NCBI GenBank assembly: GCA_905236985.1
Contig: CAJORF010000140.1
Location: 5,973 to 69,972, forward strand
Direction of reading: 5' to 3'
DNA from: an uncultured Bacteroidaceae bacterium
GTDB lineage: Bacteria > Bacteroidota > Bacteroidia > Bacteroidales > Bacteroidaceae
Length of the DNA stretch: 64,000 nucleotides
Positions 2,209-62,718 of the stretch are shown here, piece after piece; position 1 is the first letter of the stretch; the number at the start of each line of letters is the position of its first letter. A model generated the notes under the pieces. The model did not search any database. It was not told where the DNA came from and saw only the letters and a program-made list of their open reading frames with translations. The position numbers and the translations under genes are program-made.

Positions 2209-3684
2209 ATGAAATCACTGGTTATACTTATTATTTGTCTGCCAACTCAATCGTCAGCACAAACATCTGAGAAAGAATTTTTGTCTTTTTCTGACGCTGT
2301 CAATAATTTAGCGTTACATTCACAGAGAGCACAATCTGCATGGCTACAATATGATAATGCAAAGTTGACCTATGACAATTACAAAAAAAGTTTTCTCCCC
2401 CAATTGCGGATTAATCTAAAACCTATTACCTTCAATCATGCCATGAAGCTTTTACAAGACCCTTATTCTGGTGAGTATCGGAATATAGAAGACTTCGCAA
2501 ATACATCTATCGCCACGCTGACAATATCTCAGAAAGTTGGGCCAACGGGGGGGATATTATCTGCAACTACGGGATTAAGTTATCTTCACGAGTTCACAAA
2601 TCACAGAGACAATTACAGTTCTACACCGTTCTATGTAAGCTATTCACAACAAATCATCGGTGGATTTCGAAGTTATATGCAAGAAAAGAAAGTCAGCCGT
2701 CTTCAATACGAGTTGGCTGCGATGACTGTTTGTCAAGCTCTTGCAAGAGAACAGTGCGAAGTTGCCAGACTATATATATCAGCCTGCTTAGCGTTATTAC
2801 GAAAAGAACAGGCAATGAAGGACATAGAGGCAGAAGATTCTCTATTATTTTATGCCCGAATTAGACATGAAAACGGGTACATAACAGACTACGATATGAC
2901 TCAGATCCGTTTAGAGCATTTACAAGCCATCTACACACAAGCACAATATGCAGCCCATGCCAAAGAGGCTCTACATTCATTAGCTTTACGATTGGGTTGT
3001 CAAAATGAAAACCTGTCTATCTTTATACCAAATACTGATGCACTGCCTTCATTGCTAATAGAAGCAGAAGTCAAAATGCAAGCGAGGCAGAATAATCCAG
3101 AATACAAATCGGCAGAACTTCGGCGTACTCAAGCGATAAAGAACCTGCATCACCGAAAGCTAGCGAACCGATTCAATGCTAGCGTTTCACTGAGCTATGG
3201 GCTGAACCAATATGCAAACACCTTATGTGGAGCCTATCAACATCCTAATCAACAGCAATCCGTGGGATTAACACTGAGCATTCCAGTCTTTGATTGGGGT
3301 ATTAGCCGTAATCAACGCCGAATGGCAGAAAATGATTTCGACGAAGAGACAATATTAATAGAGGAATCTTGTAGAATGGCAGATAATGAAATTATTACCA
3401 GAACCATGAACTATAATCTTGCATCTTCCCAATATGAAATAAGTCGTGAACAATATAAATTAGCTATAGAACAGTATAGTCAGCTAATCAGCAAATTTTC
3501 GCAAGGTAGTGCGTCTGTCTATGAATTAATATCCGCTAACAGAGCTAAACAGAATACATTGATTAATCACATGAATGTCGTGAGGGCACTATTCGATGAA
3601 TATTATACAATCCAACAATTGACTCTATATAACTTCTGCGAAAATAGGAGATTGAGCGAAGTATATGGTATTAAAATAGACTAA
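2209..3684 (+). CDS. TolC-family outer membrane efflux protein
   Basis: The ATG at 2209 gives the signal-peptide-like start MKSLVILIICLPTQSSAQ. The 2137 start in the ORF track overlaps the upstream gene and is less likely. The roughly 490-aa protein has two repeated coiled-coil-rich halves typical of outer membrane efflux proteins. It sits directly upstream of HlyD and ABC genes. Confidence 0.8.
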   Translation: MKSLVILIICLPTQSSAQTSEKEFLSFSDAVNNLALHSQRAQSAWLQYDNAKLTYDNYKKSFLPQLRINLKPITFNHAMKLLQDPYSGEYRNIEDFANTSIATLTISQKVGPTGGILSATTGLSYLHEFTNHRDNYSSTPFYVSYSQQIIGGFRSYMQEKKVSRLQYELAAMTVCQALAREQCEVARLYISACLALLRKEQAMKDIEAEDSLLFYARIRHENGYITDYDMTQIRLEHLQAIYTQAQYAAHAKEALHSLALRLGCQNENLSIFIPNTDALPSLLIEAEVKMQARQNNPEYKSAELRRTQAIKNLHHRKLANRFNASVSLSYGLNQYANTLCGAYQHPNQQQSVGLTLSIPVFDWGISRNQRRMAENDFDEETILIEESCRMADNEIITRTMNYNLASSQYEISREQYKLAIEQYSQLISKFSQGSASVYELISANRAKQNTLINHMNVVRALFDEYYTIQQLTLYNFCENRRLSEVYGIKID

Positions 3685-3693
3685 AACAACCGA

Positions 3694-4983
3694 ATGAAAG
3701 AGGGAGTACTAGAAAGAAAGAACCGTTCAGAAGAAATTCAGGATATCATAGATCGGATGCCCACAATATGGACACGTTATGTGACGGGCATTGTAGTGTT
3801 TTTTATATCAGTACTAATATTCTTAGGATTTCTCATAAAGTATCCCGATACGGTCATTGGCGAAGTTACCATCACCTCTAGTCAAGCACCCGTGCGTCTT
3901 CAGGCTTTAGGAACGGGACGACTACATCTGCTCCTCAGGAATCGTGATAGCGTTGATAAGGGTGACATTATCGCATATATTGATGATGGAGCAGTGCTGA
4001 AAGACATCTTGTCATTGGATTCGCTGCTCAATGGGGTAAGGTGCACAGGAAGCAAATACCCGCCATCGCTAATGCTAGGAAGTCTTAGTACGGCCTATGA
4101 TACATGGGTCGCAGCTTGGCATGAAACGAACCAGCTTCGCACAACGAAAATATATTCAAATATGCGCAAAGGACTGGATGAACAATTGCATTTAAACCAC
4201 TCCTTAGCTGAAAGTCAGCAAAGACAACTACTTTTGAGCACTGAACAGTATCGTATTTATCATATTCGTCAAGAAAAAGACAGTGTTCTTCACTTAAAAG
4301 GAGTTATCAGTGATGAAGAGATGGAAAGAAAGCAGAATACTTTCGTTTTACGAAAGCTACAGCTAATGGAACAGGAAAGCAGTCTTCTGAGCACCAAGTC
4401 AGCTATTAGTCAGAATCGTATTGAACGTGCACGTATAGATATCAGTGAGATGGATGAGGTGCGTCGTTCCCAAGACAAATTATCTATCCGTGAGTTAGAA
4501 CTACGAAGTGCTATACGTCAATGGAAAGAGAAATATCTGCTTATAGCCCCGGCTAACGGTCAAATTGAATATATGGGATTTTGGAGAGAGCATGATTATG
4601 TTCAGGCTGGACAGGTGATCTTTTCCATCCTACCGCCGCAAGGCTCTGTCTTCGGCGAGGCCTACATCACAGCCGCAGGCTTTGGAAAGGTGGAGGTCGG
4701 ACAACTGGCAAATGTGAAATTGACTAATTATCCTTACGCCGAGTTTGGTCATATAGTAGGACGTGTAGAAAGTATTTCCCGACTAGCCCATACCATTCAG
4801 ACACCAAAGGGAGTTGCAGAGACATATTTAGTTGTTATTATATTTCCCAATGGAATGATGACAAACTTCGGACAACTATTGAATGTGGGGTACGAGGCTC
4901 AAGGTCATGTGGAAATCATAACCAAGCCAAAGCGAATCATTCAAAGGCTATTTGATAATCTGAGATCAAAAAAAGAAAAATGA
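3694..4983 (+). CDS. HlyD-family membrane fusion protein (bacteriocin/type I exporter accessory protein)
   Basis: It has an N-terminal cytoplasmic tail plus one TM segment (YVTGIVVFFISVLIFLGFLI). A long coiled-coil-type middle region follows (QLHLNHSLAESQQRQLLL...ELELRSAIRQWKEKY), then a C-terminal beta-barrel segment. Its stop overlaps the ABC gene start (ATGA at 4980-4983). Confidence 0.85.
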   Translation: MKEGVLERKNRSEEIQDIIDRMPTIWTRYVTGIVVFFISVLIFLGFLIKYPDTVIGEVTITSSQAPVRLQALGTGRLHLLLRNRDSVDKGDIIAYIDDGAVLKDILSLDSLLNGVRCTGSKYPPSLMLGSLSTAYDTWVAAWHETNQLRTTKIYSNMRKGLDEQLHLNHSLAESQQRQLLLSTEQYRIYHIRQEKDSVLHLKGVISDEEMERKQNTFVLRKLQLMEQESSLLSTKSAISQNRIERARIDISEMDEVRRSQDKLSIRELELRSAIRQWKEKYLLIAPANGQIEYMGFWREHDYVQAGQVIFSILPPQGSVFGEAYITAAGFGKVEVGQLANVKLTNYPYAEFGHIVGRVESISRLAHTIQTPKGVAETYLVVIIFPNGMMTNFGQLLNVGYEAQGHVEIITKPKRIIQRLFDNLRSKKEK

Positions 4984-7172
4984 ATCTATTCAAACGTTTT
5001 CCCATAGATTATCAAATGGACTCTCAAGACTGCGGCCCCGCATCACTAAAGATGGTAGCAAAACATTTTGGGCGCTATTATTCATTACAGCAATTGCGTG
5101 ATCTATGTGGAATCACCAAAGAGGGCGTTTCTTTGGGCAACCTAGCTACAGGCGCCGAAAGTATAGGACTGCGTACGCTGTCCATAAGATGTAATTTAGA
5201 GGATGTCGTAGAGAAAGTTCCTTTACCCGCTATTGTTTTTTGGAACGAGAGCCATTTTGTTGTGGTGTATCATGCCAATAAACATTATATCTATGTTGCA
5301 GACCCAGCCAAAGGCTATATTCGCTACTCTCATGAGGATTTCTGTTTGGGATGGTATTTGAAGGGTGAACATATAGGTGTGCTGATGGCAGTTGAGCCTA
5401 CAGCAGATTTCAATACTTCAAATGCAGAGCGGCTCCAACAAAAGGATAGTATGCTTAGTATTCTTAGGTATTTCCGCCCCTACCTACACGATTTCATACT
5501 CATTCTTATCATTATGTCAATGGTGACAGCCTTGCAGGCAATCCTTCCTTTTATTTCAAAAGCAGTGATAGACGTGGGAATTAGTACCTCAGATATCAAC
5601 TTTATCTATATGATCCTTTTCGGGAATGTGTGTATTCTTCTGAGTGTGTTGATGTTCAATGCTATGAGGGACTGGATTCTGATGCATATTACAGCGCGAA
5701 TAAATGTCGCACTCATCTCCGACTATCTTATAAAGTTGATGAAATTGCCGGTTACATTTTTTGAGAACAAACTTCTTGGAGATATCTTGCAACGTGCACA
5801 AGATCATGAGCGTATCCGAGCTTTTATCATGAACAACTCTCTTTCAATGCTATTCTCTGTGCTAACTTTTTTTGTATTCTCTATCATCTTGCTTATTTAT
5901 AACACGATTATTTTTTCCTTTTTTCTTATAGGATCGTTTCTGTATGTGTCATGGGTTTTGCTTTTTTTACAAGTCCGCAAGAAATTGGACTGGCAATATT
6001 TTGAGCTTATCTCACGAAATCAGAGCTATTGGGTGGAGACAGTGTCTGCTATACAAGATATTAAACTAAACAATTACGAACGCTCCAGACGTTGGAAATG
6101 GGAGGAGATACAAGCGCAGCTTTATCATGTAAACAAACGAGTCCTTGGGATTACAAATATGCAAAATCTTGTCGCCCAGTTCATTGACAGTATAAAGAAT
6201 ATGGCAATTACTTTTTTTTGCGCGACTGCTGTTATTCGAGGTGATATTACTTTTGGCGTAATGATTTCAACTCAATTTATTTTAGGTATGTTGAATGGCC
6301 CTTTAGTTCAATTTATAAACTTTGTAGTATCTGCGCAGTATGCGAAAATATCTTTTCTGCGCATGAATGAGATTCGTCAGTTGGAAGATGAGGAAGAGTT
6401 ACTTTCATTAGGGTCATCAACAATCCTTCCTAAACGAAAGGAGATATCTTTTGAAAATGTAATGTTTCAGTATGCTGCCAATGGCCCATTTGTTCTGAAA
6501 AACATCTTCCTGTACATCCCTGAAAACAAGGTGACAGCCATTGTTGGGGGAAGTGGAAGTGGCAAGTCAACCTTGTTGAAGTTGCTAGTGCGGTTATACA
6601 AGCCTACATTCGGAGATATAAAGATGGGGGGGATGAATGTATCTGCCATTAACTTAAGGGAGTGGCGTCAAATGTGTGGTGTCGTAATGCAAGATGGAAA
6701 ACTATTTAATGATACTGTATTGGGCAATATCGTGCTTGATGATGAGCATGTAGACAAAAGTCGAGTTATGAAATGTTGTAGAACAGCTCAGATTCTGGAG
6801 GAAATAAATAGTATGCCTAAAGGATTCGATACAATGATAGGTGAGCGTGGTCGTGGCTTGAGTGGAGGACAAAGGCAGCGATTGCTAATAGCACGTGCCT
6901 TGTATCGTAATCCTCATTTTTTATTTTTGGATGAGGCGACAAATGCTTTGGACACCGTCAATGAGCGCAAAATCGTGGATGCTTTGACCAATGCTTTCGA
7001 AAATAGAACTGTTGTTGTAATTGCACATAGATTGAGTACAATAAGAGGGGCTCATCAAATTGTTGTAATGCATGAAGGACGGATTGTAGAAGTCGGGAAT
7101 CATCAAACTCTAATGGAAAAGAAAGGTTACTATAATCAACTTCTACTTTCTCAAGGGCCTCTCACTGGTTAA
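4980..7172 (+). CDS. Peptidase C39 domain-containing ABC transporter (double-glycine leader cleaving peptide exporter)
   Basis: The N-terminal C39 motif is QMDSQDCGPASLKMV with downstream HFVVVY...VADP. Six TM helices follow. The nucleotide-binding motifs are Walker A GGSGSGKST, signature LSGGQRQR and Walker B FLFLDEATNALD. Confidence 0.95.
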   Translation: MNLFKRFPIDYQMDSQDCGPASLKMVAKHFGRYYSLQQLRDLCGITKEGVSLGNLATGAESIGLRTLSIRCNLEDVVEKVPLPAIVFWNESHFVVVYHANKHYIYVADPAKGYIRYSHEDFCLGWYLKGEHIGVLMAVEPTADFNTSNAERLQQKDSMLSILRYFRPYLHDFILILIIMSMVTALQAILPFISKAVIDVGISTSDINFIYMILFGNVCILLSVLMFNAMRDWILMHITARINVALISDYLIKLMKLPVTFFENKLLGDILQRAQDHERIRAFIMNNSLSMLFSVLTFFVFSIILLIYNTIIFSFFLIGSFLYVSWVLLFLQVRKKLDWQYFELISRNQSYWVETVSAIQDIKLNNYERSRRWKWEEIQAQLYHVNKRVLGITNMQNLVAQFIDSIKNMAITFFCATAVIRGDITFGVMISTQFILGMLNGPLVQFINFVVSAQYAKISFLRMNEIRQLEDEEELLSLGSSTILPKRKEISFENVMFQYAANGPFVLKNIFLYIPENKVTAIVGGSGSGKSTLLKLLVRLYKPTFGDIKMGGMNVSAINLREWRQMCGVVMQDGKLFNDTVLGNIVLDDEHVDKSRVMKCCRTAQILEEINSMPKGFDTMIGERGRGLSGGQRQRLLIARALYRNPHFLFLDEATNALDTVNERKIVDALTNAFENRTVVVIAHRLSTIRGAHQIVVMHEGRIVEVGNHQTLMEKKGYYNQLLLSQGPLTG

Positions 7173-7279: not shown

Positions 7280-7564
7280 TTGAAAATTGTTTTCAATGGC
7301 AATGCTGAGCTCACCTACAACCGTGCCTGGCAACTCTACGAGGAATGGTACGACAAGGGAAAAGCAAAACAGGAAGCGTTCTTTGATGGTCTCGGACTGG
7401 ATGCTGATGCAGAAACCGTACTGGCTGAATATGCTCAGCACAGAGCCTGGCGCGAACAGACGGGCTTCAGTGCCACGCCGACCCTCCTTGTCAACGGCTA
7501 TCGTATGCCTTCGACGTATCAGATGGAAGATTTTGTAGATTTAATGAAAGTAGAAACCGTATAG
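7280..7564 (+). pseudogene. C-terminal remnant of a thioredoxin-fold/DsbA-like thiol-disulfide oxidoreductase domain (5'-truncated)
   Basis: Only about 94 codons are open, from a TTG with no ATG and no signal peptide or CxxC active site. The C-terminus (FSATPTLLVNGYRMPSTYQMEDF) resembles the cis-Pro loop and end of DsbA-like domains. A visible AT-rich to GC-richer composition change occurs just upstream (7173-7290). The stop is 1 nt from the next start. Confidence 0.5.
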
Positions 7565-7565
7565 T

Positions 7566-8249
7566 ATGGAATATCGATTCACTCCAGAGCAACGTTTGTT
7601 GCATAACCTCGTGCTGCATAGTAACGACGTACCCGCCCGTGGCCTTTTCGATGGGCAGATGGGCATCGTCCTTGTACTTTCCGAGTATGTCCGTGCCCGG
7701 AAGTTGCGTCCCCTGAAGACAGCCATCAACTTCCTCCTTGATCAAGTCCTTGACAATCTTTCCACCGAGATGCCTTTGGAGTTTGCCAACGGCCTGACCG
7801 GCATCGGATGGGGCGTGGAATATCTTCTACAAAACAAGTTCCAGCGCGGTCAGGGAGCAGACATCTGCGCTGCCATCGATCAGAAGCTGATGCAGCAGAA
7901 CATCCTTAGACAGACTGACCTCAGCCTCAACAAAGGCCTTGAAGGCTGGCTACACTACATCGTTGCCCACGTGCAAGGAGCCCAGAAGGACGGTCGTCAG
8001 GTCTTCGATGCAGCCTACTTGCAGAACTGCCTCGCTGTCTGTCGACACCTCCTTCAGCAGGATATATCCCCGTCGCTGAGGCTGCTATGCCAGGCCTTCG
8101 AACAGATGATGCAAGGACAACCTATCCAATACACCTTCGACCTTTCTGCCTTTGTCGCTCCGAACATCAAGCGCAACACACCGATGCTGGGCCTTCACTC
8201 TGGCATGGCCGGGCTGTTATTCACACACATCAACCAAAAACAGGCATGA
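7566..8249 (+). CDS. Short LanC-like (alpha/alpha-toroid GxxG repeat) protein lacking recognisable zinc ligands; function unknown
   Basis: Repeated motifs GLFDGQMGIVLVL, ANGLTGIGWGVEYLL, GLEGWLHYIV and LHSGMAGLLF resemble the Gly-rich helix-hairpin repeats of LanC-like cyclases. At 227 aa it is about half the usual LanC length, and I see no CxG/WCxG/CHG zinc motifs. It is translationally coupled to the glycosyltransferase (ATGA at 8246-8249). Confidence 0.45.
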   Translation: MEYRFTPEQRLLHNLVLHSNDVPARGLFDGQMGIVLVLSEYVRARKLRPLKTAINFLLDQVLDNLSTEMPLEFANGLTGIGWGVEYLLQNKFQRGQGADICAAIDQKLMQQNILRQTDLSLNKGLEGWLHYIVAHVQGAQKDGRQVFDAAYLQNCLAVCRHLLQQDISPSLRLLCQAFEQMMQGQPIQYTFDLSAFVAPNIKRNTPMLGLHSGMAGLLFTHINQKQA

Positions 8250-9475
8250 AACATATCTATATCTTAGACGAGCATCAGAGCTCGAAACAGAATGGCGTGG
8301 GTACTTACATACGCCAACTGCTGAAATGCTTCGAGGGCAGTGGGCACAATGTCAACTTGCTGTCGTTTAATGATGATGAAAAGGAACTGAAAATTGAAAC
8401 TCTTTCAACATGCACTGAATACCATCTTCCCATTTGTGGGATGAACGGATTCTTGGACAACGGAAAATTATTCCTTTCGCTATTACGTCTTTATATCGAA
8501 GACAGTAAGGATAATGTGTTCTTCATTAATCATTTTCCTTGTGACAAGTTCCTCGTTGACCTCAAACACCACTTTCCGCTTTCACGTACCATCTTTGTTA
8601 TCCACGATCAGGGATGGTGTGCACCTCTGCTTGGAGATATTGAAATGTTCCAGAAGGTACTGGCGTCAAAATATCTGCCCAAAGGTCACAAGAACGAGTG
8701 GAAACATATCAGAGACATCACGCGTAGAGAGCGGAGGATGTATAGGTTGGTTGATGATATCATCACCTTATCAGATAGTACATACAACTTGCTGTTGGAG
8801 ACCTACGGAGTTCCAGCTGGAAAGATTCATTTGATACCCAATGGACTTCAACAACCAGATGATTTGTGCTCTCAGGAAGAGAAAATACTAATTCGAAAAC
8901 GTCTTGGCATTGCCGATAATGAGGTCGTGCTGTTATACACAGGCCGCACATCGCCCTCGAAGGGTATTATTCCAATGTTGATGGCATTTGATCAGTTATG
9001 GATGGAGCATCCGAGTGTGCGTCTTGTCATCGCTGGTGAGATATTCAGGTTCAATGATTTTGCCAAGCAGACGTCCCATAGTGCCTCACATGTCACTTAT
9101 ACAGGTCTCCTGCCAAAAGAACAATTGAGCGAATGGTATCAAATTGCTGACATAGGTATTCTGCCTTCATACACTGAGCAGAGTAGTTACACGGGCATTG
9201 AGATGCTGGCATACGGAAAGCTGATTGTAACAACCGACGGACATAACCTAACGGATATGTTCAATGACAAGACGGCCATTGTTGCTCATATCGGCGAAAA
9301 ACGGGCAGAGGATTCTACCGATCTTGTCAACTCCCTTGTCGAAGCGGTGAACAAGGCATTGTTCATGAGAACAGAAGAGCGTCAACAGCTTCAGTCTCAA
9401 GCACGTCATCATTACAACCATGCTTATTCTTTCACCAGCTGGAAAGCAATATACTCCCGTCTGATCAACGGGTAG
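8246..9475 (+). CDS. GT4-family (GT-B fold) glycosyltransferase, peptide-system associated
   Basis: The start MKHIYILDEHQSSKQNGVGTYIRQLL is at the ATG at 8246. The 8087 start in the ORF track is an out-of-context extension overlapping the previous gene. The C-terminal motif PSYTEQSSYTGIEMLAYGKLIV is of the EX7E type. It lies immediately upstream of a GG-leader precursor, as in the glycosyltransferase family described for the GG-Bacteroidales peptide system (TIGR04157, recalled from memory). Confidence 0.85.
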   Translation: MKHIYILDEHQSSKQNGVGTYIRQLLKCFEGSGHNVNLLSFNDDEKELKIETLSTCTEYHLPICGMNGFLDNGKLFLSLLRLYIEDSKDNVFFINHFPCDKFLVDLKHHFPLSRTIFVIHDQGWCAPLLGDIEMFQKVLASKYLPKGHKNEWKHIRDITRRERRMYRLVDDIITLSDSTYNLLLETYGVPAGKIHLIPNGLQQPDDLCSQEEKILIRKRLGIADNEVVLLYTGRTSPSKGIIPMLMAFDQLWMEHPSVRLVIAGEIFRFNDFAKQTSHSASHVTYTGLLPKEQLSEWYQIADIGILPSYTEQSSYTGIEMLAYGKLIVTTDGHNLTDMFNDKTAIVAHIGEKRAEDSTDLVNSLVEAVNKALFMRTEERQQLQSQARHHYNHAYSFTSWKAIYSRLING

Positions 9476-9557
9476 TTTCTCTCAAAATGACAGCTGTCGA
9501 GAGCAGCAACGGCCTGCTGGGAATGGCCAAATAGATTATCAATAATTAAATGATATT

Positions 9558-9851
9558 ATGAAAAAAATTCAATTGCATGATGACAACATCTATCAGGCTC
9601 TTTCAATTGATGAATTAAAACAAGTTAAAGGAGGTGGCGAATCTGGCTATTGGCGATGTAATATGGGTACTTGTTCGGTAAAACAAGGGTTACAAACAAT
9701 TACTGGGAAATGTCAACTTACTATGGTTCACTCCCAAGCAGCATTTAAATGTACTTGTCAAAAAAATGGTGAGGATATATTGGTGTTGGGACAGGCAGTC
9801 AGCTGTTGGGAATACGTCGAGCAGTCTGGATATAGCGGATCTGGTGACTAA
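9558..9851 (+). CDS. Double-glycine-leader precursor peptide (bacteriocin/RiPP-like), 26-aa leader plus 71-aa Cys-rich core
   Basis: The leader MKKIQLHDDNIYQALSIDELKQVKGG matches the LSxxELxxIxGG double-glycine consensus cleaved by C39 domains. The core GESGYWRCNMGTCSVKQ...KCTCQKNG...SCWEYVEQSGYSGSGD has 6 Cys and a Ser/Gly/Tyr tail. It sits among exporter and modification genes. Confidence 0.8.
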   Translation: MKKIQLHDDNIYQALSIDELKQVKGGGESGYWRCNMGTCSVKQGLQTITGKCQLTMVHSQAAFKCTCQKNGEDILVLGQAVSCWEYVEQSGYSGSGD

Positions 9852-9870
9852 ATAGATGTTTTGTTGTTTT

Positions 9871-9891
9871 GCGTCCTCAATTTGAGGACGC
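9871..9891 (+). terminator. GC-rich hairpin 20 nt after the precursor stop codon (attenuator or mRNA-stabilising stem; no downstream U-tract)
   Basis: gcgtcctca-att-tgaggacgc forms a perfect 9-10 bp stem. It is preceded by ttgttgtttt and followed by A-rich sequence, so it is not a canonical intrinsic terminator. Confidence 0.45.
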
Positions 9892-9931
9892 AAACATCAA
9901 ACTTATATCAAAATACTTCATCCATATAAAA

Positions 9932-12661
9932 ATGCTTAAATGCCCGTCATTATATTATCGTTGCTCATTACTACTTCTTTTCTTTGCAATCGCATCTTCG
10001 TTACATGCAGATATCATTAGAGGTAGAATCAAAGATGCCCAAAGCACAGAAGGCGTACCATACGCAACAATTAGCTGTCTGCTCATAATAGGAAATAACG
10101 GTATGGCGGTAGTGCAAGAACATAGAGCTGACAGTTTAGGTAGCTTTACATTTCATGCTGCAAATAGTGGACAATTCGTGGTATCAATGGTTGGATACAA
10201 GAATTCAGATATCATCAGTTTCAGCGTTTTTTCTGAAAGCCGACGGGATACCATAGATGTGGGCGATATCAAACTGCAGCCCACCGAGACAATGATGCGG
10301 GCATTAGAGGTGAGCGCACGGGCACGGCGTTTCACCATGAACGGTGATACCATAGTGTTTCATCCCGAGGCGTTCCACCTGGAGGAGGGCGCACGTTTAG
10401 AGGATCTCATCAGGCAGTTGCCGGGCGTCAGCGTTGACGAAAGCGGGCTCTCTTGGAACGGACGGCCGTTACGTGTAGTCATGAACGGGGAGGAGATATT
10501 TGGAGGCAGTGCCATCGTGAAGCAGCTGCCTGTCCAAGCCGTGGAGACCATCAAGGCGTACAACAAGGCATCGGAGCTTAGCAGACATACTGGCAAAGAT
10601 GACGGCAGTGAGGACATGGTGCTGGATCTGAACATCAAACCAGGATTTCTCGACCGTTTCTATGGAGATGCAACGGCTAAATATCAGACACCTAAGCAAT
10701 ATGAGGGTGAGCTCACGGCCAACCGCCTCTCGGACACAGACCCACTGATGCTCTATAGCGAGGCCAACACAATGAACCGCATCGCCTCGGAGGGCTTTAA
10801 CTCTTGGCGGTCAGGAGAGCGGAATGAGGGCTACGGGCTGGGACAGTTCGCCGCCATAGGTTATCAGCACAACTGGGGCAGTAGGCAGGGACGACATAAC
10901 CTGCATAGTTTTGCCGACGCCACGGGCAGCATCTCACACGAGGACCATTGGGGTACTGCCTACAGTGAGACGTTAAGCTATTTTCCGAACTCTTCCAGCA
11001 ACCGCCTCTCACAACAGAATCATCAGCATACTCATCAACTCATGCCTAAGATACATGGAGGAGCACGATGGGAAATAGATACGCTGAACACTATCTATGT
11101 AGATTTTTCCACGGAGTTTGGTCGTCAGAGAAGCAACGTTAACGAACGTACATGCCAGTATGTTCTCATAGAATCACCAGACAGCATTTCAACTGAACAA
11201 CTGACTATGAATGGGGGTGCACTTTCACACTCGACTTTGGACATTGTTAATCTTCATGCCGCTGCAGGATGGACACATTATATCAAAGAAGGTTCACTGA
11301 ACATTGATACAGAATGGAATATAAGGGATAAGAAAGCCAACGGGCATGCGACCCGCGAAATTACCTATCCGACGTATATCACAGATGATTTTACGCTCAT
11401 GCAGGACAGCCGACTTGAGACGAATAGTCACAAGGGCAGCATCAAGGCCGAAGCCAAGCGATGGCTGACACCAAAGGCTCTGTTCACGGCAGACTATACC
11501 CTCTGGCTGAGCCGCCGCCATGACAACCAAGTTTTCATGACCGACGGACTGACGGATGCAGGTGAGAGCTACGATGACCTCCACCAGAGCATCACTCACA
11601 CTCTCGGGCTGAGTTCTACGCTCAATTTGCGCCCCTTCCAGCTGACACCCCGACTGAACTATATACTGAACAGAGAGAAAGAGAAATACACGCGGGGAAG
11701 TCTCGACACATTGGCACTTAGAAACTCACACCGCATAGAACCTTCATTGAGCATGAAATGGAAAATTGATGCCAACTCGGAGGTCAATTTAAATTACGGT
11801 TTTGTTACACAAGAGCCAGAACTGAAGCAAATGATGGCCTACCGTGATGCAACGAATCCGCTCTTCATCATGCAGGGCAGCCCCGATCTACGAAATATAC
11901 ACATCAACCATGGCGGTCTGCGCTACCAAATTATCATCCCGTCGCGTCAACTTCAACTCTATGTTTTTGCCGGTTTTCATCACTCTGACAACAGCCACCA
12001 GCCGCTGCTACGCTATGACTCCAATCGTTCTGCTTATATCAGCCGTCTGGAGAACGTCAAAGGATATCAGGAATTCAACCTGATGGCCAACTACGACCAA
12101 GGCTTCGGCGATGTCGTGCGTCTCCGCAATACACTCACTTTCATCCGAGGAAAGAGCTATGCCCACCTGTTGCAGACCTCGCCAGACGAGCCACTTCAGC
12201 TCAACCGACAGCTTTGTATGACCCTGAGAGATGAGGCGCGCTTGTCGTTGGACTGGAAATGGCTGAAGATAGGGACTTTTGCCAACATCAGTGCGCAGCG
12301 CATGAATAATTCGATAGCGCAGGTACAAAACACTACACTATGGAATAACAAGTTGGGCTTCGACGCAGAACTCCGCAAGGGCAAGTTCACGGTCAAGACA
12401 GAATTCTTCGACCTTATGCGCAGAGGTTACAAACTTTTAGGCATGAACTCCGATCGCTTTATCTGGAATGCCTCTGCCTCATGGCGCTGTCTCAAGGGAA
12501 AAGGCAAGTTGTCGCTCGAAGTGGATGATATCCTCAACCATGCCGACAACTTCACTTCCACTGAATCTGCTAACCAACAGGTCATGACTTGGTGCGACCA
12601 GATGCACCACTATATACGCCTCGGCTTCACTTATCATTTGGATGCAAAGGTAAAGAAATAG
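9932..12661 (+). CDS. Outer membrane beta-barrel family protein (CarboxypepD_reg-like N-domain plus plug-like region plus large barrel; PF14905-like)
   Basis: The ATG at 9932 gives the signal peptide MLKCPSLYYRCSLLLLFFAIASSLHA. IRGRIKDAQSTEGVPYATISC is a carboxypeptidase-regulatory-like start. LPGVSVDESGLSWNGRPLRVVMNGEEIF is a TonB-receptor plug-like motif. The C-terminus ends in an aromatic-rich beta-strand pattern (YIRLGFTYHL). Confidence 0.8.
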   Translation: MLKCPSLYYRCSLLLLFFAIASSLHADIIRGRIKDAQSTEGVPYATISCLLIIGNNGMAVVQEHRADSLGSFTFHAANSGQFVVSMVGYKNSDIISFSVFSESRRDTIDVGDIKLQPTETMMRALEVSARARRFTMNGDTIVFHPEAFHLEEGARLEDLIRQLPGVSVDESGLSWNGRPLRVVMNGEEIFGGSAIVKQLPVQAVETIKAYNKASELSRHTGKDDGSEDMVLDLNIKPGFLDRFYGDATAKYQTPKQYEGELTANRLSDTDPLMLYSEANTMNRIASEGFNSWRSGERNEGYGLGQFAAIGYQHNWGSRQGRHNLHSFADATGSISHEDHWGTAYSETLSYFPNSSSNRLSQQNHQHTHQLMPKIHGGARWEIDTLNTIYVDFSTEFGRQRSNVNERTCQYVLIESPDSISTEQLTMNGGALSHSTLDIVNLHAAAGWTHYIKEGSLNIDTEWNIRDKKANGHATREITYPTYITDDFTLMQDSRLETNSHKGSIKAEAKRWLTPKALFTADYTLWLSRRHDNQVFMTDGLTDAGESYDDLHQSITHTLGLSSTLNLRPFQLTPRLNYILNREKEKYTRGSLDTLALRNSHRIEPSLSMKWKIDANSEVNLNYGFVTQEPELKQMMAYRDATNPLFIMQGSPDLRNIHINHGGLRYQIIIPSRQLQLYVFAGFHHSDNSHQPLLRYDSNRSAYISRLENVKGYQEFNLMANYDQGFGDVVRLRNTLTFIRGKSYAHLLQTSPDEPLQLNRQLCMTLRDEARLSLDWKWLKIGTFANISAQRMNNSIAQVQNTTLWNNKLGFDAELRKGKFTVKTEFFDLMRRGYKLLGMNSDRFIWNASASWRCLKGKGKLSLEVDDILNHADNFTSTESANQQVMTWCDQMHHYIRLGFTYHLDAKVKK

Positions 12662-12666
12662 GACTG

Positions 12667-12716
12667 CTTGTGAAATCTGGTGAAATCGCCAGCGAAGTTG
12701 TGAAAAGCTGTGAAAT
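12667..12716 (+). promoter_or_regulatory. Five 10-bp phased direct repeats (consensus cYtGTGAAAT) upstream of a near-consensus -7 box (TACCTTTA, 12743-12750)
   Basis: The units are cttgtgaaat / ctggtgaaat / cgccagcgaa / gttgtgaaaa / gctgtgaaat. GTGAAA starts at 12670, 12680, 12700 and 12710, exactly one helical turn apart. They lie in the 115-bp spacer between the two barrel genes. Confidence 0.55.
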
Positions 12717-12776
12717 GATTGGATTATTTCAGTTTAAGTACATACCTTTACAGCGTAAATCTTTATAATATAACCT

Positions 12777-15437
12777 ATGACTTTAATATTACAGCATTTT
12801 GGAGTAAGCCTTAATCGCCTCCTTTCTTTCCGGGAGCAGTTAATCCTAATGTGCCTCCTCCTTCCCCTCTCGGCGAAGGGGCAGACGGATACGCTCTCGA
12901 CCAAAGAACCGGAAACGACCATGAGGGAAGTGGCGGTGAAGGCATCGAAGATACTCATGGTGCAGAACGGCGACACGCTCGTCTACAATGCCGACCAGCT
13001 GCAGCTGGCTGCCGGTGCCATGCTGGACGAGCTGATCAATGCCTTGCCTGAGGCACGAATCAGCCCTGAGGGCGTGATTTCGGTCAAAGGAGAGCCTGTC
13101 GCCGAGCTGCTTATCGAGGGCCGTGACTTCTTCCACGGCGACCCGACGATTGCGCTGAAGAACCTGCCGGCCTTCACGGTGAAGAAGGTGAAGGTCTATC
13201 GCAAGGTTCCGCGCAATGCCTATCTGACGCGAGAGGACAAGGGAAAGAAGGCTCGCGAGACGGATCCGCTGGTCATGGATGTGCGCCTGAAACCACAGTA
13301 CCAGAACGGCATCATTGCCAATGTAGAGTCGGCCAGCGGTGTGCCCACTCAGGGCGAGAGCAAGTATCTCTATCTGGAACGACTGTTCGGACTGCACTAC
13401 AACGAGCGGCGAAGCCTCTCGGGGTACGTGGGACTGAACAATGTCAACGACAAAGGCAGGCCGCAGTCTAAGGGACTGTGGAGCGACCAGACGGATGAGA
13501 TGGGCGAGCAGCGACAAGCCATAGCCGGCGTGGACTACACCTACCAAAATCCCAGCAACAGGATGAGCATCAACTCGTCAATCCGTTTCAACGATTCCAA
13601 GGATATCCAGCTGCGGGAAACCTCCGACATGAGATACCTTGCCGAAGGCGACCTGCACGGCCTCTCCACGGCACGTAACGACAACCGACGCATCGACCTG
13701 TCCTGGAGCAGTGATTTCTTCTATCCCGCCAAGGCCTTCACGGTAGAGGTGCGACCACGCGTGGGAATCTCCAAGTCAAACGGCCTGTCCACCGACCGCT
13801 CCGCCACATTCTCAGCGCAGCAGGACGGCACGCTCAGCACGACGCTGGACAGCATCTGCACTCTGGAGGCCGAAGCTTTCCGCGCCACTCCGTTTGCCGT
13901 CAACCGCCAGACGATGAAGGCTGACAGCAGGACCAAGGGCATTGACTTCGGCCTCACCGCCCGCTCGACCGTCAGGCCTGCTTCGTTCAGACAACCATTA
14001 AATGTCACACTCTCGGCCAACTATTGGTCCAACGCAAGTACCGAGGACAGGCAGAACATCATCGACTTTGCAGACGCTTCGACACTATCGCAGCACAAGC
14101 AGCAGTATCGCAACAGCCCGAATAGCCAGGCCATGATGAACCTGGATTTATACTATACCGCATGGTCATTCATTCAGGGAGAGAAGACGGGAAGAGTTGA
14201 CCTGACGTTCAGGTCGGACTTCCGCCGCGAGAACCGCGAGAACCGCCTCTACGACCTGGACGAGCTGATGGAGGAGTACGAAGGGGGCACATGGGGAGAG
14301 CTGCCCGACGAGGAGCTCCTTCAGACGGTCATGGACACGGGAAACAGCTATGAGAGACTGACGGCAGAATACAATCAGACACTGACCGTCAACGGACTGT
14401 ACGCCTTCTCAAGGAACCTCAGCGGCTCCGTGTCGCTACCGCTCGCACTGAAGAACAGGCGCTTGCGTGACGAACGGGCGGCATCGGAGGTAAATCTCAG
14501 AAGCTGCAACGTGCTGCCCTCGCCATCCGTCAGACTTCAGTTATGGCGCATCACGCTCGGCTATTCCTACAAGACATTGCTACCCGGACTGGAAGACAGG
14601 GCGGACCGCACCGACGACAGCAACCCCCTCTTCGTCAGCATAGGCAACAAGGAACTCCGCAACGGTCACGCCCACAGGCCTACGATCAGCTATTCACAGC
14701 GATTCAGCAAGGCACACGCCTCGGCGTCGTTGCGGGCAGATTGGCTGTTCATGCAGGACGCCATCAAGCGTATGTTCTACTATGATGCCAAGACAGGCGT
14801 GACCACCGCCCAGAGCCGCAACGTCAACGGCGACTGGCAGGCCAACGTCAGCGGCAGTTTCCAGAAAGACTTTGGTAAACAGCAACAATGGCAGTTCAAG
14901 GCGGATGCCGACATGAGATTTGAGAACGACAATGAGTACGACCGCAGTGCGTCGGATGGAGAGGTGAGCATATATGCCGCCAAGAGGATGTGGCTCAACG
15001 CCAAGGCGGAGCTGACCTACAACCATGCCGGATGGCTCTTCAGTCTGCACGGCAAATACATATGGCGGCATACGAGGAGCGTGCAGAACCGCTTCAGCAA
15101 CGTCGACTACAGGAACCTGCGCTGCGGCGCTGCCGTACGAACACCTGTATGGCACGGGCTGTCGCTCACCACGGACTGCTACGTGAACACTGATCGTGGC
15201 TTGGTCAACGAACAGCTGAACCGCAGCTACGTCGTCTGGAACGCCAACGCCAGATACGACCTAAACGCCCATTGGAGCTTCCAACTCGAGGGCATAGACC
15301 TGCTGCGGCAGCTCAGGTCCACCAGCATGGGCGCCAGCGCTTACGGATGGTCGGAAGTACGCCGCAACACGCGCCCCTCTTACATCCTCCTGCACGCCGT
15401 CTACCGCTTCAATCTCTTACCTAAGGAGAAGAAATGA
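12777..15437 (+). CDS. Outer membrane beta-barrel family protein, paralogous type (plug-like N-region plus barrel; PF14905-like)
   Basis: The N-terminal region is typical of this family: VAVKASKILMVQNGDTLVYNADQLQLAAGAMLDELINALPEARISPEGVISVKGEPVAELLIEGRDFF. The C-terminus is a beta-strand ending (ILLHAVYRFNL). It is visibly more GC-rich than the first barrel gene. Its stop overlaps the next gene's start (ATGA at 15434-15437). Confidence 0.8.
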   Translation: MTLILQHFGVSLNRLLSFREQLILMCLLLPLSAKGQTDTLSTKEPETTMREVAVKASKILMVQNGDTLVYNADQLQLAAGAMLDELINALPEARISPEGVISVKGEPVAELLIEGRDFFHGDPTIALKNLPAFTVKKVKVYRKVPRNAYLTREDKGKKARETDPLVMDVRLKPQYQNGIIANVESASGVPTQGESKYLYLERLFGLHYNERRSLSGYVGLNNVNDKGRPQSKGLWSDQTDEMGEQRQAIAGVDYTYQNPSNRMSINSSIRFNDSKDIQLRETSDMRYLAEGDLHGLSTARNDNRRIDLSWSSDFFYPAKAFTVEVRPRVGISKSNGLSTDRSATFSAQQDGTLSTTLDSICTLEAEAFRATPFAVNRQTMKADSRTKGIDFGLTARSTVRPASFRQPLNVTLSANYWSNASTEDRQNIIDFADASTLSQHKQQYRNSPNSQAMMNLDLYYTAWSFIQGEKTGRVDLTFRSDFRRENRENRLYDLDELMEEYEGGTWGELPDEELLQTVMDTGNSYERLTAEYNQTLTVNGLYAFSRNLSGSVSLPLALKNRRLRDERAASEVNLRSCNVLPSPSVRLQLWRITLGYSYKTLLPGLEDRADRTDDSNPLFVSIGNKELRNGHAHRPTISYSQRFSKAHASASLRADWLFMQDAIKRMFYYDAKTGVTTAQSRNVNGDWQANVSGSFQKDFGKQQQWQFKADADMRFENDNEYDRSASDGEVSIYAAKRMWLNAKAELTYNHAGWLFSLHGKYIWRHTRSVQNRFSNVDYRNLRCGAAVRTPVWHGLSLTTDCYVNTDRGLVNEQLNRSYVVWNANARYDLNAHWSFQLEGIDLLRQLRSTSMGASAYGWSEVRRNTRPSYILLHAVYRFNLLPKEKK

Positions 15438-17653
15438 CAAAACATTTTCCACATACCCATCAGCTCAACACCATGGACTGTGGACCAGCCTGTCTGCGCA
15501 TGGTTGCACAGTCGTATGGTAAGCACTATCGACTTGAAACATTGCGTGAGCGGAGTTTCATCACCCGTGAAGGGGTTAGTATGTTGGGCATTGCTGATGC
15601 AGCTGAGACAATAGGATTCCGATCGTTGGGCGTTAGGACCACAATGAAGGAACTGGTACAACAACGCCCGCTACCCTGCATCCTCCACTGGAATCAGAAC
15701 CATTTCGTGGTTCTATATGACATCAGAAAGCACTGGCGAACTGGGGCTTTGTCGTTCTACATCGCTGACCCTGCATCACAGCTGGTGCGCTACGGCGAAG
15801 AGGAGTTTACGCGCTGCTGGGCAAATACAGTGTCGGCACAGCAGGAACCCATGGGCGTAGCATTGCTGCTGACACCAACACCAGAATTTAATGTGATCGC
15901 TGATGAGCCGAAGGTATCAACGCGACGCGACCTGCTCTTCTTTGCCCGCTACCTGCTGCCTCACCGCAAGGCTTTCGTCCAGTTGATTATGGGGATGCTT
16001 GTGGGTATGGCACTACAGCTGGCAGCGCCGTTCCTGACGCAGGCGATGGTGGATCAGGGCATAGGCGGACAAAACCTTGGCTTTATTACCTTAATCCTGC
16101 TTGCACAGTTAGGTTTGTTCGTGGCACAGCTTATCGTTGGTTTCCTCCGTAGCTGGGTGACATTGCATGTCAATGCCCGAATAGATGTGGCGCTCATCTC
16201 AGACTTCCTGATGAAACTGATGCGGCTGCCACTACGCTACTTCGACACAAAGATGACGGGTGATATCATGCAGCGCATCGGAGATCACAGCCGCATCAAG
16301 AGTTTCCTGATGGGAAATTCCGTCAACATCCTTTTCTCGTTAGCCAATTTCTTCATTTTCGGTGCCATATTGGCCTACTATAACTGGCAAATCCTCTCCA
16401 TCTTTCTCATAGGAAACTCACTCTACGCGACGTGGGTACTCTCGTTCATGAAGTACCGACGTGAACTGGACATTCGGCGTTTCAACCAAAGTTCGGCAGA
16501 GCAGAGTACGGTTATTCAGCTCATTCAGGGTATGCAAGAAATCAAACTGAACAATTGCGAACGGCAGAAACGGTGGGAGTGGGAACGAATACAGGTGAAG
16601 CTTTTCCGTATCAGCGTAAAAGGGCTCACGATAGGGCAGATACAAGAGGTAGGGTCAGTCTTCTTCACACAGACGACGCATATCCTCATCTCGTTTATCG
16701 CCGCCAAAGCCGTTGTGGATGGTCAGATGACACTGGGCATGATGATGTCGCTGACGTATATCATCGGTCAAGTGTCGGCACCGATAGGACAGTTCATCGG
16801 CTTCGCCCAAAGTCTGCAGGATGCCAAGATTAGCATGGAACGTCTGAGTGAGGTGCATGAACAGCAGGATGAGGAGATGAACGCCGAAGGACGACTCCAC
16901 GAATTGCCCAATCAAGGTGACATCTCCGTGGAGGATGTCACCTTCAGTTATAGTGGTGCCGATCGTGACTACGCTCTTGACCATCTGTCGCTAACCATTC
17001 CCGAAGGAAAAGTGACAGCCATAGTGGGAGCCAGCGGAAGCGGAAAGACGACACTCGTGAAACTTCTTTTGGGGTTTTATGAGCCGCAGCGAGGACATAT
17101 ACGGGTTGGGGGCACTCCTCTAAGCTTGATTGACCCCCAAGTGTGGCGCGCCGCCACAGGAAGTGTGATGCAGGAAGGGTTCATCTTCTCTGACACCATC
17201 GCGCGGAACATCGCCGTAGCAGATGAGCATATCGATACGAAGCGGCTGCAAAAGGCGGTGAAGATAGCAAATATCAGCGACTTCATCGAAGGCTTGCCCT
17301 TAGGCTACAGCACGAAAATCGGCATGGAGGGCAACGGCGTAAGCCAGGGGCAGCGCCAACGGTTGCTCATAGCCCGTGCCGTGTATAAAGACCCGCAGTA
17401 TATCTTCTTTGACGAGGCCACCAACGCCTTAGACGCCAATAACGAACGTATCATCATGGAACAGTTACACGATTTTTACAAAGGGCGTACAGTGGTCATC
17501 GTGGCCCATCGACTCAGTACCGTCCGTGATGCCGATAACATCATTGTGCTCGAACATGGGAAGGTGATAGAACAGGGGACACATGAGCAATTGACGGCAA
17601 AGCACGGGGCATATTATACTTTAGTAAGGAATCAGCTGGAATTAGGGAGTTAA
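15434..17653 (+). CDS. Second peptidase C39 domain-containing ABC transporter
   Basis: The C39 motif is HQLNTMDCGPACLRMV with NHFVVLYDI...FYIADP. Motifs include Walker A GASGSGKTT, a variant signature VSQGQRQR, and Walker B YIFFDEATNALD. Confidence 0.95.
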   Translation: MTKHFPHTHQLNTMDCGPACLRMVAQSYGKHYRLETLRERSFITREGVSMLGIADAAETIGFRSLGVRTTMKELVQQRPLPCILHWNQNHFVVLYDIRKHWRTGALSFYIADPASQLVRYGEEEFTRCWANTVSAQQEPMGVALLLTPTPEFNVIADEPKVSTRRDLLFFARYLLPHRKAFVQLIMGMLVGMALQLAAPFLTQAMVDQGIGGQNLGFITLILLAQLGLFVAQLIVGFLRSWVTLHVNARIDVALISDFLMKLMRLPLRYFDTKMTGDIMQRIGDHSRIKSFLMGNSVNILFSLANFFIFGAILAYYNWQILSIFLIGNSLYATWVLSFMKYRRELDIRRFNQSSAEQSTVIQLIQGMQEIKLNNCERQKRWEWERIQVKLFRISVKGLTIGQIQEVGSVFFTQTTHILISFIAAKAVVDGQMTLGMMMSLTYIIGQVSAPIGQFIGFAQSLQDAKISMERLSEVHEQQDEEMNAEGRLHELPNQGDISVEDVTFSYSGADRDYALDHLSLTIPEGKVTAIVGASGSGKTTLVKLLLGFYEPQRGHIRVGGTPLSLIDPQVWRAATGSVMQEGFIFSDTIARNIAVADEHIDTKRLQKAVKIANISDFIEGLPLGYSTKIGMEGNGVSQGQRQRLLIARAVYKDPQYIFFDEATNALDANNERIIMEQLHDFYKGRTVVIVAHRLSTVRDADNIIVLEHGKVIEQGTHEQLTAKHGAYYTLVRNQLELGS

Positions 17654-17757
17654 TCTTGAAACCTGAAACTTTTGGAACAGCGAGAGCCATCAAGCTTGCT
17701 TGTTCGTCCGAGTCGTGACAAAAGTCAACGAAGTTAAACTTGAATCTTGAAACTAAA

Positions 17758-62698: not shown

Positions 62699-62718
62699 AA
62701 TCTCGATATTATTAGTTC

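Follow-up and report, generated by a model that had tools for sequence, protein, structure and literature searches.

A LanC-like protein and a GT4 glycosyltransferase encoded beside a six-cysteine double-glycine peptide: a candidate peptide-glycosylation locus in Bacteroidales

Glycocins such as sublancin, glycocin F, thurandacin, pallidocin and enterocin F4-9 carry a double-glycine (GG) leader and disulfide-forming Cys, and their loci encode a C39-ABC exporter, a dedicated cytoplasmic glycosyltransferase (GT) beside the precursor and a thiol-disulfide oxidoreductase. In Bacteroidales, the ‘GG-Bacteroidales’ radical SAM (rSAM) system, which is defined by bioinformatics through the models TIGR04148, TIGR04149, TIGR04150 and TIGR04157, combines a GT lineage with a LanC-like neighbour, an extended GG leader and a C39-peptidase ABC exporter (PCAT). 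The bacteroidetocins (class IIf) are Bacteroidota toxins with a GG leader and Cys, and they too come with a thiol oxidoreductase, a PCAT and strain-variable peptides (PMC6671954, PMC8546649); their four-gene clusters contain no GT and their leaders have 15 aa (PMC6671954). We analysed a stretch of 64,000 nt from an uncultured Bacteroidaceae bacterium (hereafter the window; positions 5,973 to 69,972 of contig CAJORF010000140.1, assembly GCA_905236985.1), which carries what is probably a Bacteroidales locus encoding a peptide that is made on ribosomes, exported and probably antibacterial. The gene for a 97-aa, six-Cys precursor with a GG leader follows a gene pair encoding a half-size LanC-like protein and a GT4 enzyme (Table 1), and we consider it fairly probable that this pair glycosylates the exported peptide core under the guidance of the leader.

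A preliminary description of this DNA had noted an open reading frame (ORF) of 97 aa with a GG leader, a long six-Cys core and an SGYSGSGD tail, a GT4 gene coupled through ATGA to the gene of a 227-aa LanC-like protein without Zn ligands, a thioredoxin-fold remnant before the latter, two flanking C39-ABC exporters and no rSAM gene nearby. These points held: the precursor sequence agrees, the TGA of the LanC-like gene overlaps the ATG of the GT4 gene in the 8246-8249 region by the ORF coordinates, the exporters flank the module at 4980-7172 and 15434-17653, and the only rSAM gene of the window lies 51 kb off and is not of the TIGR04148 type. Every gene of the module is on the + strand in the ORF and gene calls.

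With the glycocins the locus shares the GG leader, the C39-ABC exporter, the GT gene by the precursor and the Cys, together with the cluster-encoded thiol-disulfide oxidoreductase, which is found in relatives of the window locus and not in the window itself, where only a 94-codon remnant is present. The glycocin enzymes are SunS-type GT2 proteins (GT-A fold), whereas a GT4 protein (GT-B fold) with a LanC-like partner occurs here; glycocins form a helix-loop-helix with nested (C-X6-C)2 disulfides, whereas the window core has the framework C-x4-C...C...C-x-C...C over 71 aa and is predicted, at low confidence, to be beta-rich; and the host here is Gram-negative, with the peptide paired with a 900-aa outer-membrane barrel. 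No SunS/GccA-type GT2 is encoded at the window locus, where the sole GT is the GT4/GT-B enzyme (PF00534, PF13439, TIGR04157). The locus is thus not a glycocin locus, having no GT2, no (C-X6-C)2 and no intact oxidoreductase, although it has the GG leader and the C39 exporter. The earlier view of it as a glycocin-like variant stands as an analogy and falls as a membership, and the remark that its Cys scaffold is distinct from that of glycocins is borne out. The bacteroidetocins, whose ecology the locus shares, differ as well, in their 15-16 aa leaders, 42-aa cores with four Cys and five-transmembrane (5-TM) protein, and in having no GT, LanC-like gene or adjacent barrel. No sequence similarity between bacteroidetocins and the window peptide was found, and no 5-TM accessory protein was assigned among the genes at 7280-18276 by family searches alone, without transmembrane prediction.

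The nearest relative of the window locus is the TIGR04157 system. Related loci were gathered by looking up exact proteins and by scanning genomes once with the alignment of the LanC-like family; the scan kept the best 80 of 194 stretches with relatives, and 86 further loci were obtained in this way (labelled L). The loci were mapped by phmmer with window and reference proteins as queries, and the peptides by a leader hidden Markov model (HMM); the counts below refer to 80 non-redundant loci. The closest loci come from rumen and herbivore-gut Prevotellaceae, Bacteroidaceae and Bacteroidales metagenome-assembled genomes. A LanC-like gene is adjacent or fused to a TIGR04157-type GT4 gene in 63 of the 80 loci. 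In five loci the two enzymes are fused in one ORF, with LanC-like then GT4 in L042, L044, L051 and L085 and the reverse order in L024, and the L042 fusion exceeds the Pfam cutoffs of both LANC_like (28.1 bits, positions 4-120 only) and ‘GT4 in conflict systems’. At least one GG-leader Cys-rich peptide was detected by the leader HMM in 58/80 loci and by eye in about five more (40/48 among the loci of at least 15 kb). In relatives, GG-leader peptide genes take the same position as in the window. VKOR-thioredoxin and PCAT genes were each mapped in 31/80 loci.

A homologue of the TIGR04148 rSAM or TIGR04150 pseudo-rSAM protein was present in 26/80 loci and in none of the 16 closest relatives, and none was found within 50 kb of the window module. 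The rSAM-less state is therefore not peculiar to this locus but the commoner architecture among the relatives sampled. One locus, L028, has the same LanC-like/GT4 pair and is a genuine TIGR04148/04149/04150 locus; this reference locus and the counts place the window in the rSAM-less branch of a wider system, in which the LanC-like/GT4 pair, the extended GG leader and the PCAT form the constant core. The leaders have 23-29 aa and an MKK(I/L)xK(I/L)KL extension in rSAM and rSAM-less loci alike. The cores differ between the branches: those of rSAM-less loci have a median of 64 aa, mostly with six Cys (exactly six in 38/56) and without CCxCGC, whereas those of rSAM loci have a median of 43 aa and of four Cys (exactly four in 21/42), often with CCxCGC right after GG. 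Instead of an rSAM or pseudo-rSAM protein, the window branch pairs with a VKOR-thioredoxin protein and an outer-membrane barrel, and the GT and the precursor of the window score below the curated cutoffs. These data suggest that in TIGR04157 systems, curated as ‘rSAM-associated’, the GT/LanC-like pair is constant and the Cys-cross-linking enzyme (rSAM or VKOR-thioredoxin) is interchangeable.

The window GT4 matched TIGR04157 (glyco_rSAM_CFB) with 311.3 bits over residues 3-403 of 409 and model positions 1-402 of 406, against a curated cutoff of 400 and a runner-up model at 75 bits; a Tannerella forsythia homologue reached 432.7 bits, above the cutoff. The window GT4 is thus a sub-cutoff member of the TIGR04157 lineage. 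The HMM checks proposed in the preliminary description accordingly came out divided, with a full-length best match to TIGR04157 on the one hand and scores below the cutoffs for both TIGR04157 and TIGR04149 (13.5 bits) on the other. Among 67 homologues from related loci, conservation of the EX7E motif (E311-E319), GR..KG and H120 is at least 95%. Since the protein has no signal peptide and keeps these catalytic hallmarks, it should, as far as its sequence tells, be an active cytoplasmic enzyme. A search of solved structures returned generic GT4 enzymes only, at E values of 1e-6 or weaker, the closest being lipid, glycogen and lipopolysaccharide (LPS) transferases (PimB’, GlgA, WaaG).

The generic GT4 Pfam domains and the weak similarity of the protein to WcaI, TuaC and LPS GlcNAc-transferase models would also be expected of an ordinary cell-surface polysaccharide or LPS glycosyltransferase that lies beside a bacteriocin exporter by chance. 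This is very improbable, as the TIGR04157 score of 311 bits compares with 75 or less for any other model, the adjacency of LanC-like and GG-peptide genes recurs over the 80 loci, fusions included, and polysaccharide-locus genes are not found nearby. Searches of the window and its closest relatives identified no polysaccharide-locus, flippase or oligosaccharyltransferase genes near the pair, most unassigned ORFs in the related loci being unannotated. Membership of the GT in an independent polysaccharide pathway, which the preliminary description had considered, also does not agree with a pair that travels with GG peptides in most of the 80 loci. An additional small GT2 gene lies beside the GT4 gene or after the barrel gene in about 24/80 loci (for example, L003 11903-12733 and L005 11901-12767) and has no counterpart in the window; among solved structures, these proteins come closest to chondroitin synthase, GalT1 and SpsA, with no SunS-type enzyme among the PDB matches.

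A GT4-family enzyme working with a second protein is not without precedent: in the GtfA-GtfB O-GlcNAc transferase of serine-rich-repeat adhesins, a GT4-family GT-B enzyme depends on a non-catalytic partner for recognising its Ser-rich polypeptide substrate in the cytoplasm before export. That system differs in that the partner GtfB is GT-B-like, not LanC-like, and the substrates are large adhesins exported by accessory Sec. No specific sequence relationship between GtfA-GtfB and the window GT4 was found in the solved-structure search.

The 227-aa partner scored 15.9 bits with PF05147 (gathering threshold 23.2) over profile positions 7-114 of 350, and the LanM and LanKC models matched weakly, with E values of about 3-5e-3. 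Its AlphaFold model had a pLDDT of 93.6, and the top 16 PDB matches in Foldseek were all LanC-family proteins (LanCL1, NisC, CuvL, ThurKC, LanCL2, GCR2), followed by MadC at rank 18 and LicM2 at rank 20, with E values of only 1e-3 to 5e-2 and a TM score of about 0.5 over part of the target. The protein appears to match the N-terminal part of the LanC toroid. LanC and LanCL cyclases, the only significant structural neighbours of the model, have the GxxG hairpin motifs in common with it and appear to share its alpha/alpha-repeat fold; they differ in having about 400 aa and a Cys-Cys-His site, and no dehydratase is encoded at the window locus. The family comprises at least 81 clusters, nearly all of 220-240 aa, with invariant GLxGxGW-type hairpin motifs. 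The Cys-Cys-His triad does not occur in the conserved columns of 36 homologues, in which C101 is the sole near-invariant Cys, and the region that holds the zinc site and catalytic His of NisC is absent. A solved-structure search with the profile of the family gave nothing significant, and a plasmid search with the protein gave three weak matches in uninformative contexts.

These matches to LanC-family folds only, and cores rich in Ser, Thr and Cys, could speak for thioether rings made by a new route, in which the GT4 would glycosylate Ser/Thr to create a leaving group, elimination would yield dehydro residues and the LanC-like protein would guide Cys addition; class III cyclase domains, as far as is known, likewise have no Zn ligands. 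We regard such a route as extremely unlikely, because the protein comprises no more than the N-terminal part of the LanC barrel and so misses the region of the catalytic His and Zn triad, the Cys, mostly six per core, co-occur with disulfide enzymes, and no lyase or eliminase candidate was found. LanB-type dehydratases have been reported to be absent from Bacteroidales, which the route would accommodate, and the same 2023 mining study recorded LanC-like genes without the Zn motif in Bacteroidales and set them aside as probably endoglucanase-like (PMC10352776).

The precursor gene (9558-9851) encodes the 26-aa leader MKKIQLHDDNIYQALSIDELKQVKGG and the 71-aa core GESGYWRCNMGTCSVKQGLQTITGKCQLTMVHSQAAFKCTCQKNGEDILVLGQAVSCWEYVEQSGYSGSGD. 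The leader ends in ELKQVKGG, exceeds what a C39 exporter needs and bears the TIGR04149-like N-terminal extension MKKIxL. It scored 28.7 bits with the leader HMM built from related loci, being itself among the seeds, and 15.5 bits with TIGR01847, below the cutoff; the precursor reached 13.5 bits with TIGR04149 (E 0.051, cutoff 25), for which the relatives gave 14 to 27.6 bits. The window leader therefore resembles the TIGR04149 family without being a curated member. The six core Cys lie in WRC, GTC, GKC, CTC and SCW, Ser and Thr make up about 20% of the core, and the tail is SG-rich and acidic, ending in SGYSGSGD.

Exhaustive phmmer and profile searches of two large protein collections returned only two homologues of the peptide, P0086 and P0088, each full-length and 34-36% identical. 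The gene of P0086 lies directly 3’ of a GT4 gene whose product is 65% identical to the window GT4, and the P0088 locus carries the LanC-like/GT4 pair. Invariant across the three family members are C34, C39, C52, C65, C67, C83, W32, W84 and S90-G91. A stem-loop follows the precursor stop codon (-22.1 kcal/mol, z = -6.9), and none of 200 shuffled sequences folded equally well; it is likely a terminator or attenuator. These results indicate that the peptide is real and under constraint, with six invariant Cys in three members and a hairpin 3’ of the stop, and the ORF is conserved, a point on which the preliminary description had made its reading depend. A word-based homology search with the peptide returned only the self match, and no Pfam model matched it.

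Three long repeat proteins (P0083, P0085 and P0087) were also considered as homologues of the peptide and were treated as spurious or at best unresolved. P0083 is a 1703-aa Listeria-Bacteroides repeat (Flg_new) protein that matched core residues 24-66 (window 9630-9755) in phmmer with an E value of 4.7e-15, which sums ten weak repeat matches (GY.F.GW...G....G.IT....C.LT); as no Pfam model matches the peptide, this similarity is probably inflated or due to chance. Among the related loci, the Cys framework of the window represents a second, rare type, of which three members are known, and the commoner six-Cys framework is CxC...C-x3-C-x3-C-x(4-6)-C (L003, L007, L008, L009, L089 and L090), often in tandem peptide genes. 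In rSAM-less loci of the Proteiniphilum, Petrimonas and Bacteroides type (L036 4699-9943; L025, L029 and L031), every GG peptide gene with six Cys has its own gene for a protein of about 400-470 aa behind it, and the two L036 followers tested have a C-terminal thioredoxin domain.

The argument for the leader as a guide comes from a near relative of the window locus, L090, whose LanC-like, GT4 and PCAT proteins are 94%, 86% and 94% identical to those of the window. DNA identity between the two loci is 93% up to position 9535, about 41% over the peptide and barrel genes and 87% from 15429 onwards. The L090 peptide has a similar leader and a six-Cys core unrelated to that of the window. This is the signature that tailoring enzymes guided by a leader would leave: the enzymes are conserved and the leader stays similar while the core is exchanged. 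We propose the LanC-like protein as the peptide-recognition partner of the GT4.

The VKOR-thioredoxin enzyme of this branch is inactivated in the window. The remnant (PF13462, E 5e-3), in keeping with the thioredoxin-fold remnant described earlier, shares 65% identity with residues 439-521 of the VKOR-thioredoxin protein of L002 (522 aa), which has a sub-threshold C39-like match at its N-terminus; the L003 orthologue carries a C39 domain. The remnant shares DNA homology with relatives only from about 7320 onwards, a point downstream of the CNPC active site, and the remnant is therefore an inactive stub. The LanC-like gene begins one base past the stop of the 94-codon remnant ORF. The truncation is recent, because relatives with 91-94% identical LanC-like proteins keep the gene intact; it is intact in L090, L091, L002, L007 and L008. 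The breakpoint (about 7320) abuts the lower-GC TolC-HlyD-PCAT1 operon (2209-7172), and as L090 and L091 have the intact gene instead, this operon is probably a recent insertion or rearrangement; the truncation was apparently caused by the event that placed this second TolC-HlyD-PCAT operon alongside. A small signal-peptide protein of about 120-135 aa without a family match is encoded just 5’ of the VKOR-thioredoxin gene in relatives (Table 1) and is missing from the window.

A disulfide fate for the core Cys is likely in the family, judged from the six-Cys cores and the VKOR-thioredoxin genes. In the window itself, the loss of the CxxC and VKOR domain, intact in relatives with 91-94% LanC-like identity, together with a second barrel gene that is already an orphan, raises the possibility of a decaying locus whose six-Cys peptide is no longer matured and which is kept, if at all, for its barrels or exporters as orphan immunity or export; Bacteroides has been reported to be without a general disulfide-forming machinery (PMC6671954). 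We consider decay quite unlikely. The other genes are unbroken reading frames that retain their catalytic motifs, the peptide has lost none of its conserved Cys and Trp, another oxidoreductase could sit outside the 64-kb window, and synthetic bacteroidetocins made without disulfide-forming steps are still potent (PMC6671954).

Several observations weigh against glycosylation of the core by the pair. Ser, Thr and Gly are evenly spread along the cores: no local Ser/Thr enrichment marking acceptor sites was found, and no conserved acceptor position was identifiable in the cores. The AlphaFold2 model of the peptide, with a helix at residues 17-24 and a beta-rich core, is of low confidence (pLDDT 63.5). 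The LanC-like protein covers just the N-terminal barrel (Pfam positions about 4-120 of 350), and we purely infer that it binds the peptide. To our knowledge, the peptide S/O-glycosyltransferases of glycocins are all GT2 and not GT4 enzymes. The literature search found no experimental study of a LanC-like/GT4 module or of a TIGR04157-type GT4 acting on a peptide. Moreover, the dedicated disulfide enzyme is inactivated in this genome, and with its loss the locus may no longer give a mature product.

The missing acceptor motif, and solved GT4 relatives that are lipid, glycogen and LPS transferases, fit an alternative in which the peptide is an unmodified, disulfide-only bacteriocin of the class II type, larger than bacteroidetocins, and in which the pair modifies the producer envelope for self-protection or builds a lipid-linked sugar. 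The Bacteroidales general O-glycosylation motif D(S/T)(A/I/L/V/M/T) is not in the window core. For bacteroidetocins, a thiol oxidoreductase and a PCAT together with a membrane protein suffice, and a synthetic unmodified peptide is active (PMC6671954). However, immunity normally co-varies with the peptide, yet the pair is 86-94% conserved across the peptide swap; the pair is cytoplasmic, fused in five loci and tied to the shared extended leader; and the searches of the window and its closest relatives identified no flippase, oligosaccharyltransferase or polysaccharide genes. On balance, we hold this alternative to be unlikely, though not negligible, and leader-guided glycosylation of the core to be fairly probable.

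Between the peptide gene and PCAT2, the window encodes two outer-membrane barrels of about 900 aa. The start codon of barrel 1 is ATG 9932 or a later one; TTG 9869 falls within the hairpin and is not the start. The barrel after P0088 is 78% and the ORF after P0086 60% identical to barrel 1, versus 22-39% for barrels beside other peptide types, and on these comparisons barrel 1 appears cognate to the window peptide type. As each member of the peptide family has an orthologous barrel and the other types have divergent ones, peptide and barrel are inherited as a cassette. Orthologues of barrel 2 (L007 and L089; 59-61% identity) follow GG peptides of the CxC...Cx3Cx3C type, whereas no peptide gene precedes barrel 2 here, whose gene lies 115 bp from the previous one and has a GC content of 0.57-0.62 versus 0.37 for the peptide gene. 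Barrel 2 resembles the orphan immunity genes of bacteriocin loci. The barrels may act as an exit or uptake gate, as receptor-type immunity, or as both. The BSAP toxins of Bacteroides are MACPF proteins, and the toxin gene is inherited with the gene of a specific outer-membrane protein, adjacent resistant receptor orthologues being involved. The peptide-barrel cassettes and the orphan barrel might be understood along the lines of the BSAP system, although BSAPs are not GG-leader peptides.

The two exporters differ in their relation to the module. PCAT1 shows just 43% identity to the PCATs that are syntenic in relatives and is thus not the conserved partner of the module. PCAT2, with 94% identity to the PCAT of L090 and 82% to that of L002, is the syntenic, conserved exporter. 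The 178-aa protein encoded after PCAT2 has a weak N-terminal HlyD match (E 6e-4) and matches a 238-aa adaptor-like protein of L018 with an E value of 2e-8, and its syntenic homologues have 164-290 aa. Wherever a mapped locus has an OMP_b-brl_3 barrel and an identifiable adaptor 3’ of the PCAT, this adaptor is short (164-290 aa), whereas a full HlyD (428-473 aa) occurs in the mapped loci that have no barrel; the window also has a full HlyD, in the separate TolC-HlyD-PCAT1 operon. These observations suggest that the barrel, together with the short adaptor, takes the place of the HlyD/TolC route.

Table 1 Coordinates of the features discussed in the text (window positions unless a related locus is named).
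Feature	Coordinates	Strand	Evidence or remark
TolC-like outer-membrane efflux protein	2209..3684	+	PF02321 OEP E 1.9e-20; GC 0.40; starts extra lower-GC exporter operon
HlyD-family membrane-fusion protein, full-length, 429 aa	3694..4983	+	TIGR01843 E 5e-26, PF13437
C39-peptidase ABC exporter PCAT1	4980..7172	+	PF03412, PF00664, PF00005; QDCGPA Cys and NESHF His present
C39-VKOR-thioredoxin thiol oxidoreductase remnant (last ~83 codons)	7280..7564	+	CxxC and VKOR domain gone
Half-size LanC-like all-alpha protein, 227 aa	7566..8249	+	AlphaFold2 model, fold matches, 81 homologue clusters
GT4 (GT-B fold) glycosyltransferase, 409 aa	8246..9475	+	TIGR04157 311 bits; PF00534, PF13439
Leader peptide, 26 aa, GG-ending	9558..9635	+	Sequence; leader HMM
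Core peptide, 71 aa, six Cys, and stop codon	9636..9851	+	Sequence; two homologues
Stem-loop 3’ of precursor stop	9860..9901	+	Perfect 9-bp core 9871-9891; -22.1 kcal/mol
Outer-membrane beta-barrel 1, OMP_b-brl_3 with CarboxypepD_reg N-domain	9932..12661	+	PF14905 E 3.5e-18
Outer-membrane barrel 2, orphan	12777..15437	+	59-61% identity to L007 and L089 barrels
C39-peptidase ABC exporter PCAT2	15434..17653	+	PF03412, PF00664, PF00005; MDCGPAC Cys and NQNHF His present
Short membrane-anchored protein, 178 aa, in membrane-fusion adaptor position	17740..18276	+	N-terminus HlyD-like
Peptide-barrel cassette	window 9576-15428; L089 2772-8990; L087 997-1605		
Small signal-peptide protein upstream of VKOR-thioredoxin	L002 8028-8405; L005 7765-8166; L037 8001-8405; L091 116-478		

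A role of the locus in anti-phage defence was dropped, as PADLOC returned zero matches. A scan for sigma-70 promoters and terminators, which does not cover Bacteroidales promoters, gave no sites above the level of shuffled sequences. Elsewhere in the window, a 537-aa rSAM/SPASM maturase with a CNFRCRYC motif is encoded at 61085-62698 on the - strand and belongs to a separate pair of the ribosomal-peptide type (61085-63987) in a low-GC island (0.36-0.42) 51 kb from the module; the maturase gene sits directly downstream of the gene for a third ABC exporter, which runs off the window end. The best model for the maturase is the CcpM-like TIGR04068 (167 bits, below the cutoff), and it reached 109 bits with TIGR04148 against a cutoff of 300; a regular-expression search at 60.5-61.1 kb found no GG precursor by this gene. 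A 680-aa protein encoded at 18554-20596 (+) has many degenerate ‘INNYI..N...IFN’ repeats without a family match, and the repeat composition accounts for the long antisense ORF (18725-20341, -) and the alternative-frame ORFs in this gene. A single ORF of 2680 aa lies at 35072-43114 (+).

Taken together, these results can be arranged into a proposed pathway. The 97-aa precursor would be made in the cytoplasm, where the extra part of its leader would dock onto a two-protein enzyme consisting of the LanC-like subunit, a half-barrel without a zinc site, and the catalytically intact GT4. The GT4 would then use a nucleotide sugar to glycosylate the 71-aa core. PCAT2 would cleave after Gly26 and export the peptide with the short adaptor and the peptide-specific 900-aa barrel, which might serve as an exit or uptake gate or as immunity. 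In relatives, the C39-VKOR-thioredoxin enzyme would oxidise the six Cys into three disulfides.

More tentatively, and with somewhat more doubt than confidence, we suggest that the half-LanC and GT4 proteins, as two components or as a fusion, constitute a previously unrecognised leader-guided peptide glycosyltransferase, with the half-barrel in a role like that of a RiPP (peptide made on the ribosome and modified after translation) recognition element. This enzyme could found a Bacteroidota-wide class of glycosylated, Cys-cross-linked peptides with an rSAM (thioether) branch and a VKOR-thioredoxin (three-disulfide) branch, each peptide type having its own 900-aa barrel as specific immunity or gate. 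If this is true, it would be the first RiPP glycosyltransferase of the GT4 type, the first LanC-fold fragment to act as a substrate-recognition module and the source of the first glycosylated bacteriocins from Gram-negative gut and rumen Bacteroidales. The hypothesis is testable in cultured carriers from the genome scan, for example Petrimonas sulfuriphila DSM 16547, Tannerella forsythia ATCC 43037, Alistipes hominis, Phocaeicola massiliensis DSM 17679 and Massilibacteroides vaginae. The orphan barrel and the exchange of peptide-barrel cassettes hint at warfare and immunity between strains of Prevotellaceae and Bacteroidaceae in herbivore guts, and they are a possible source of narrow-spectrum anti-Bacteroidales agents.

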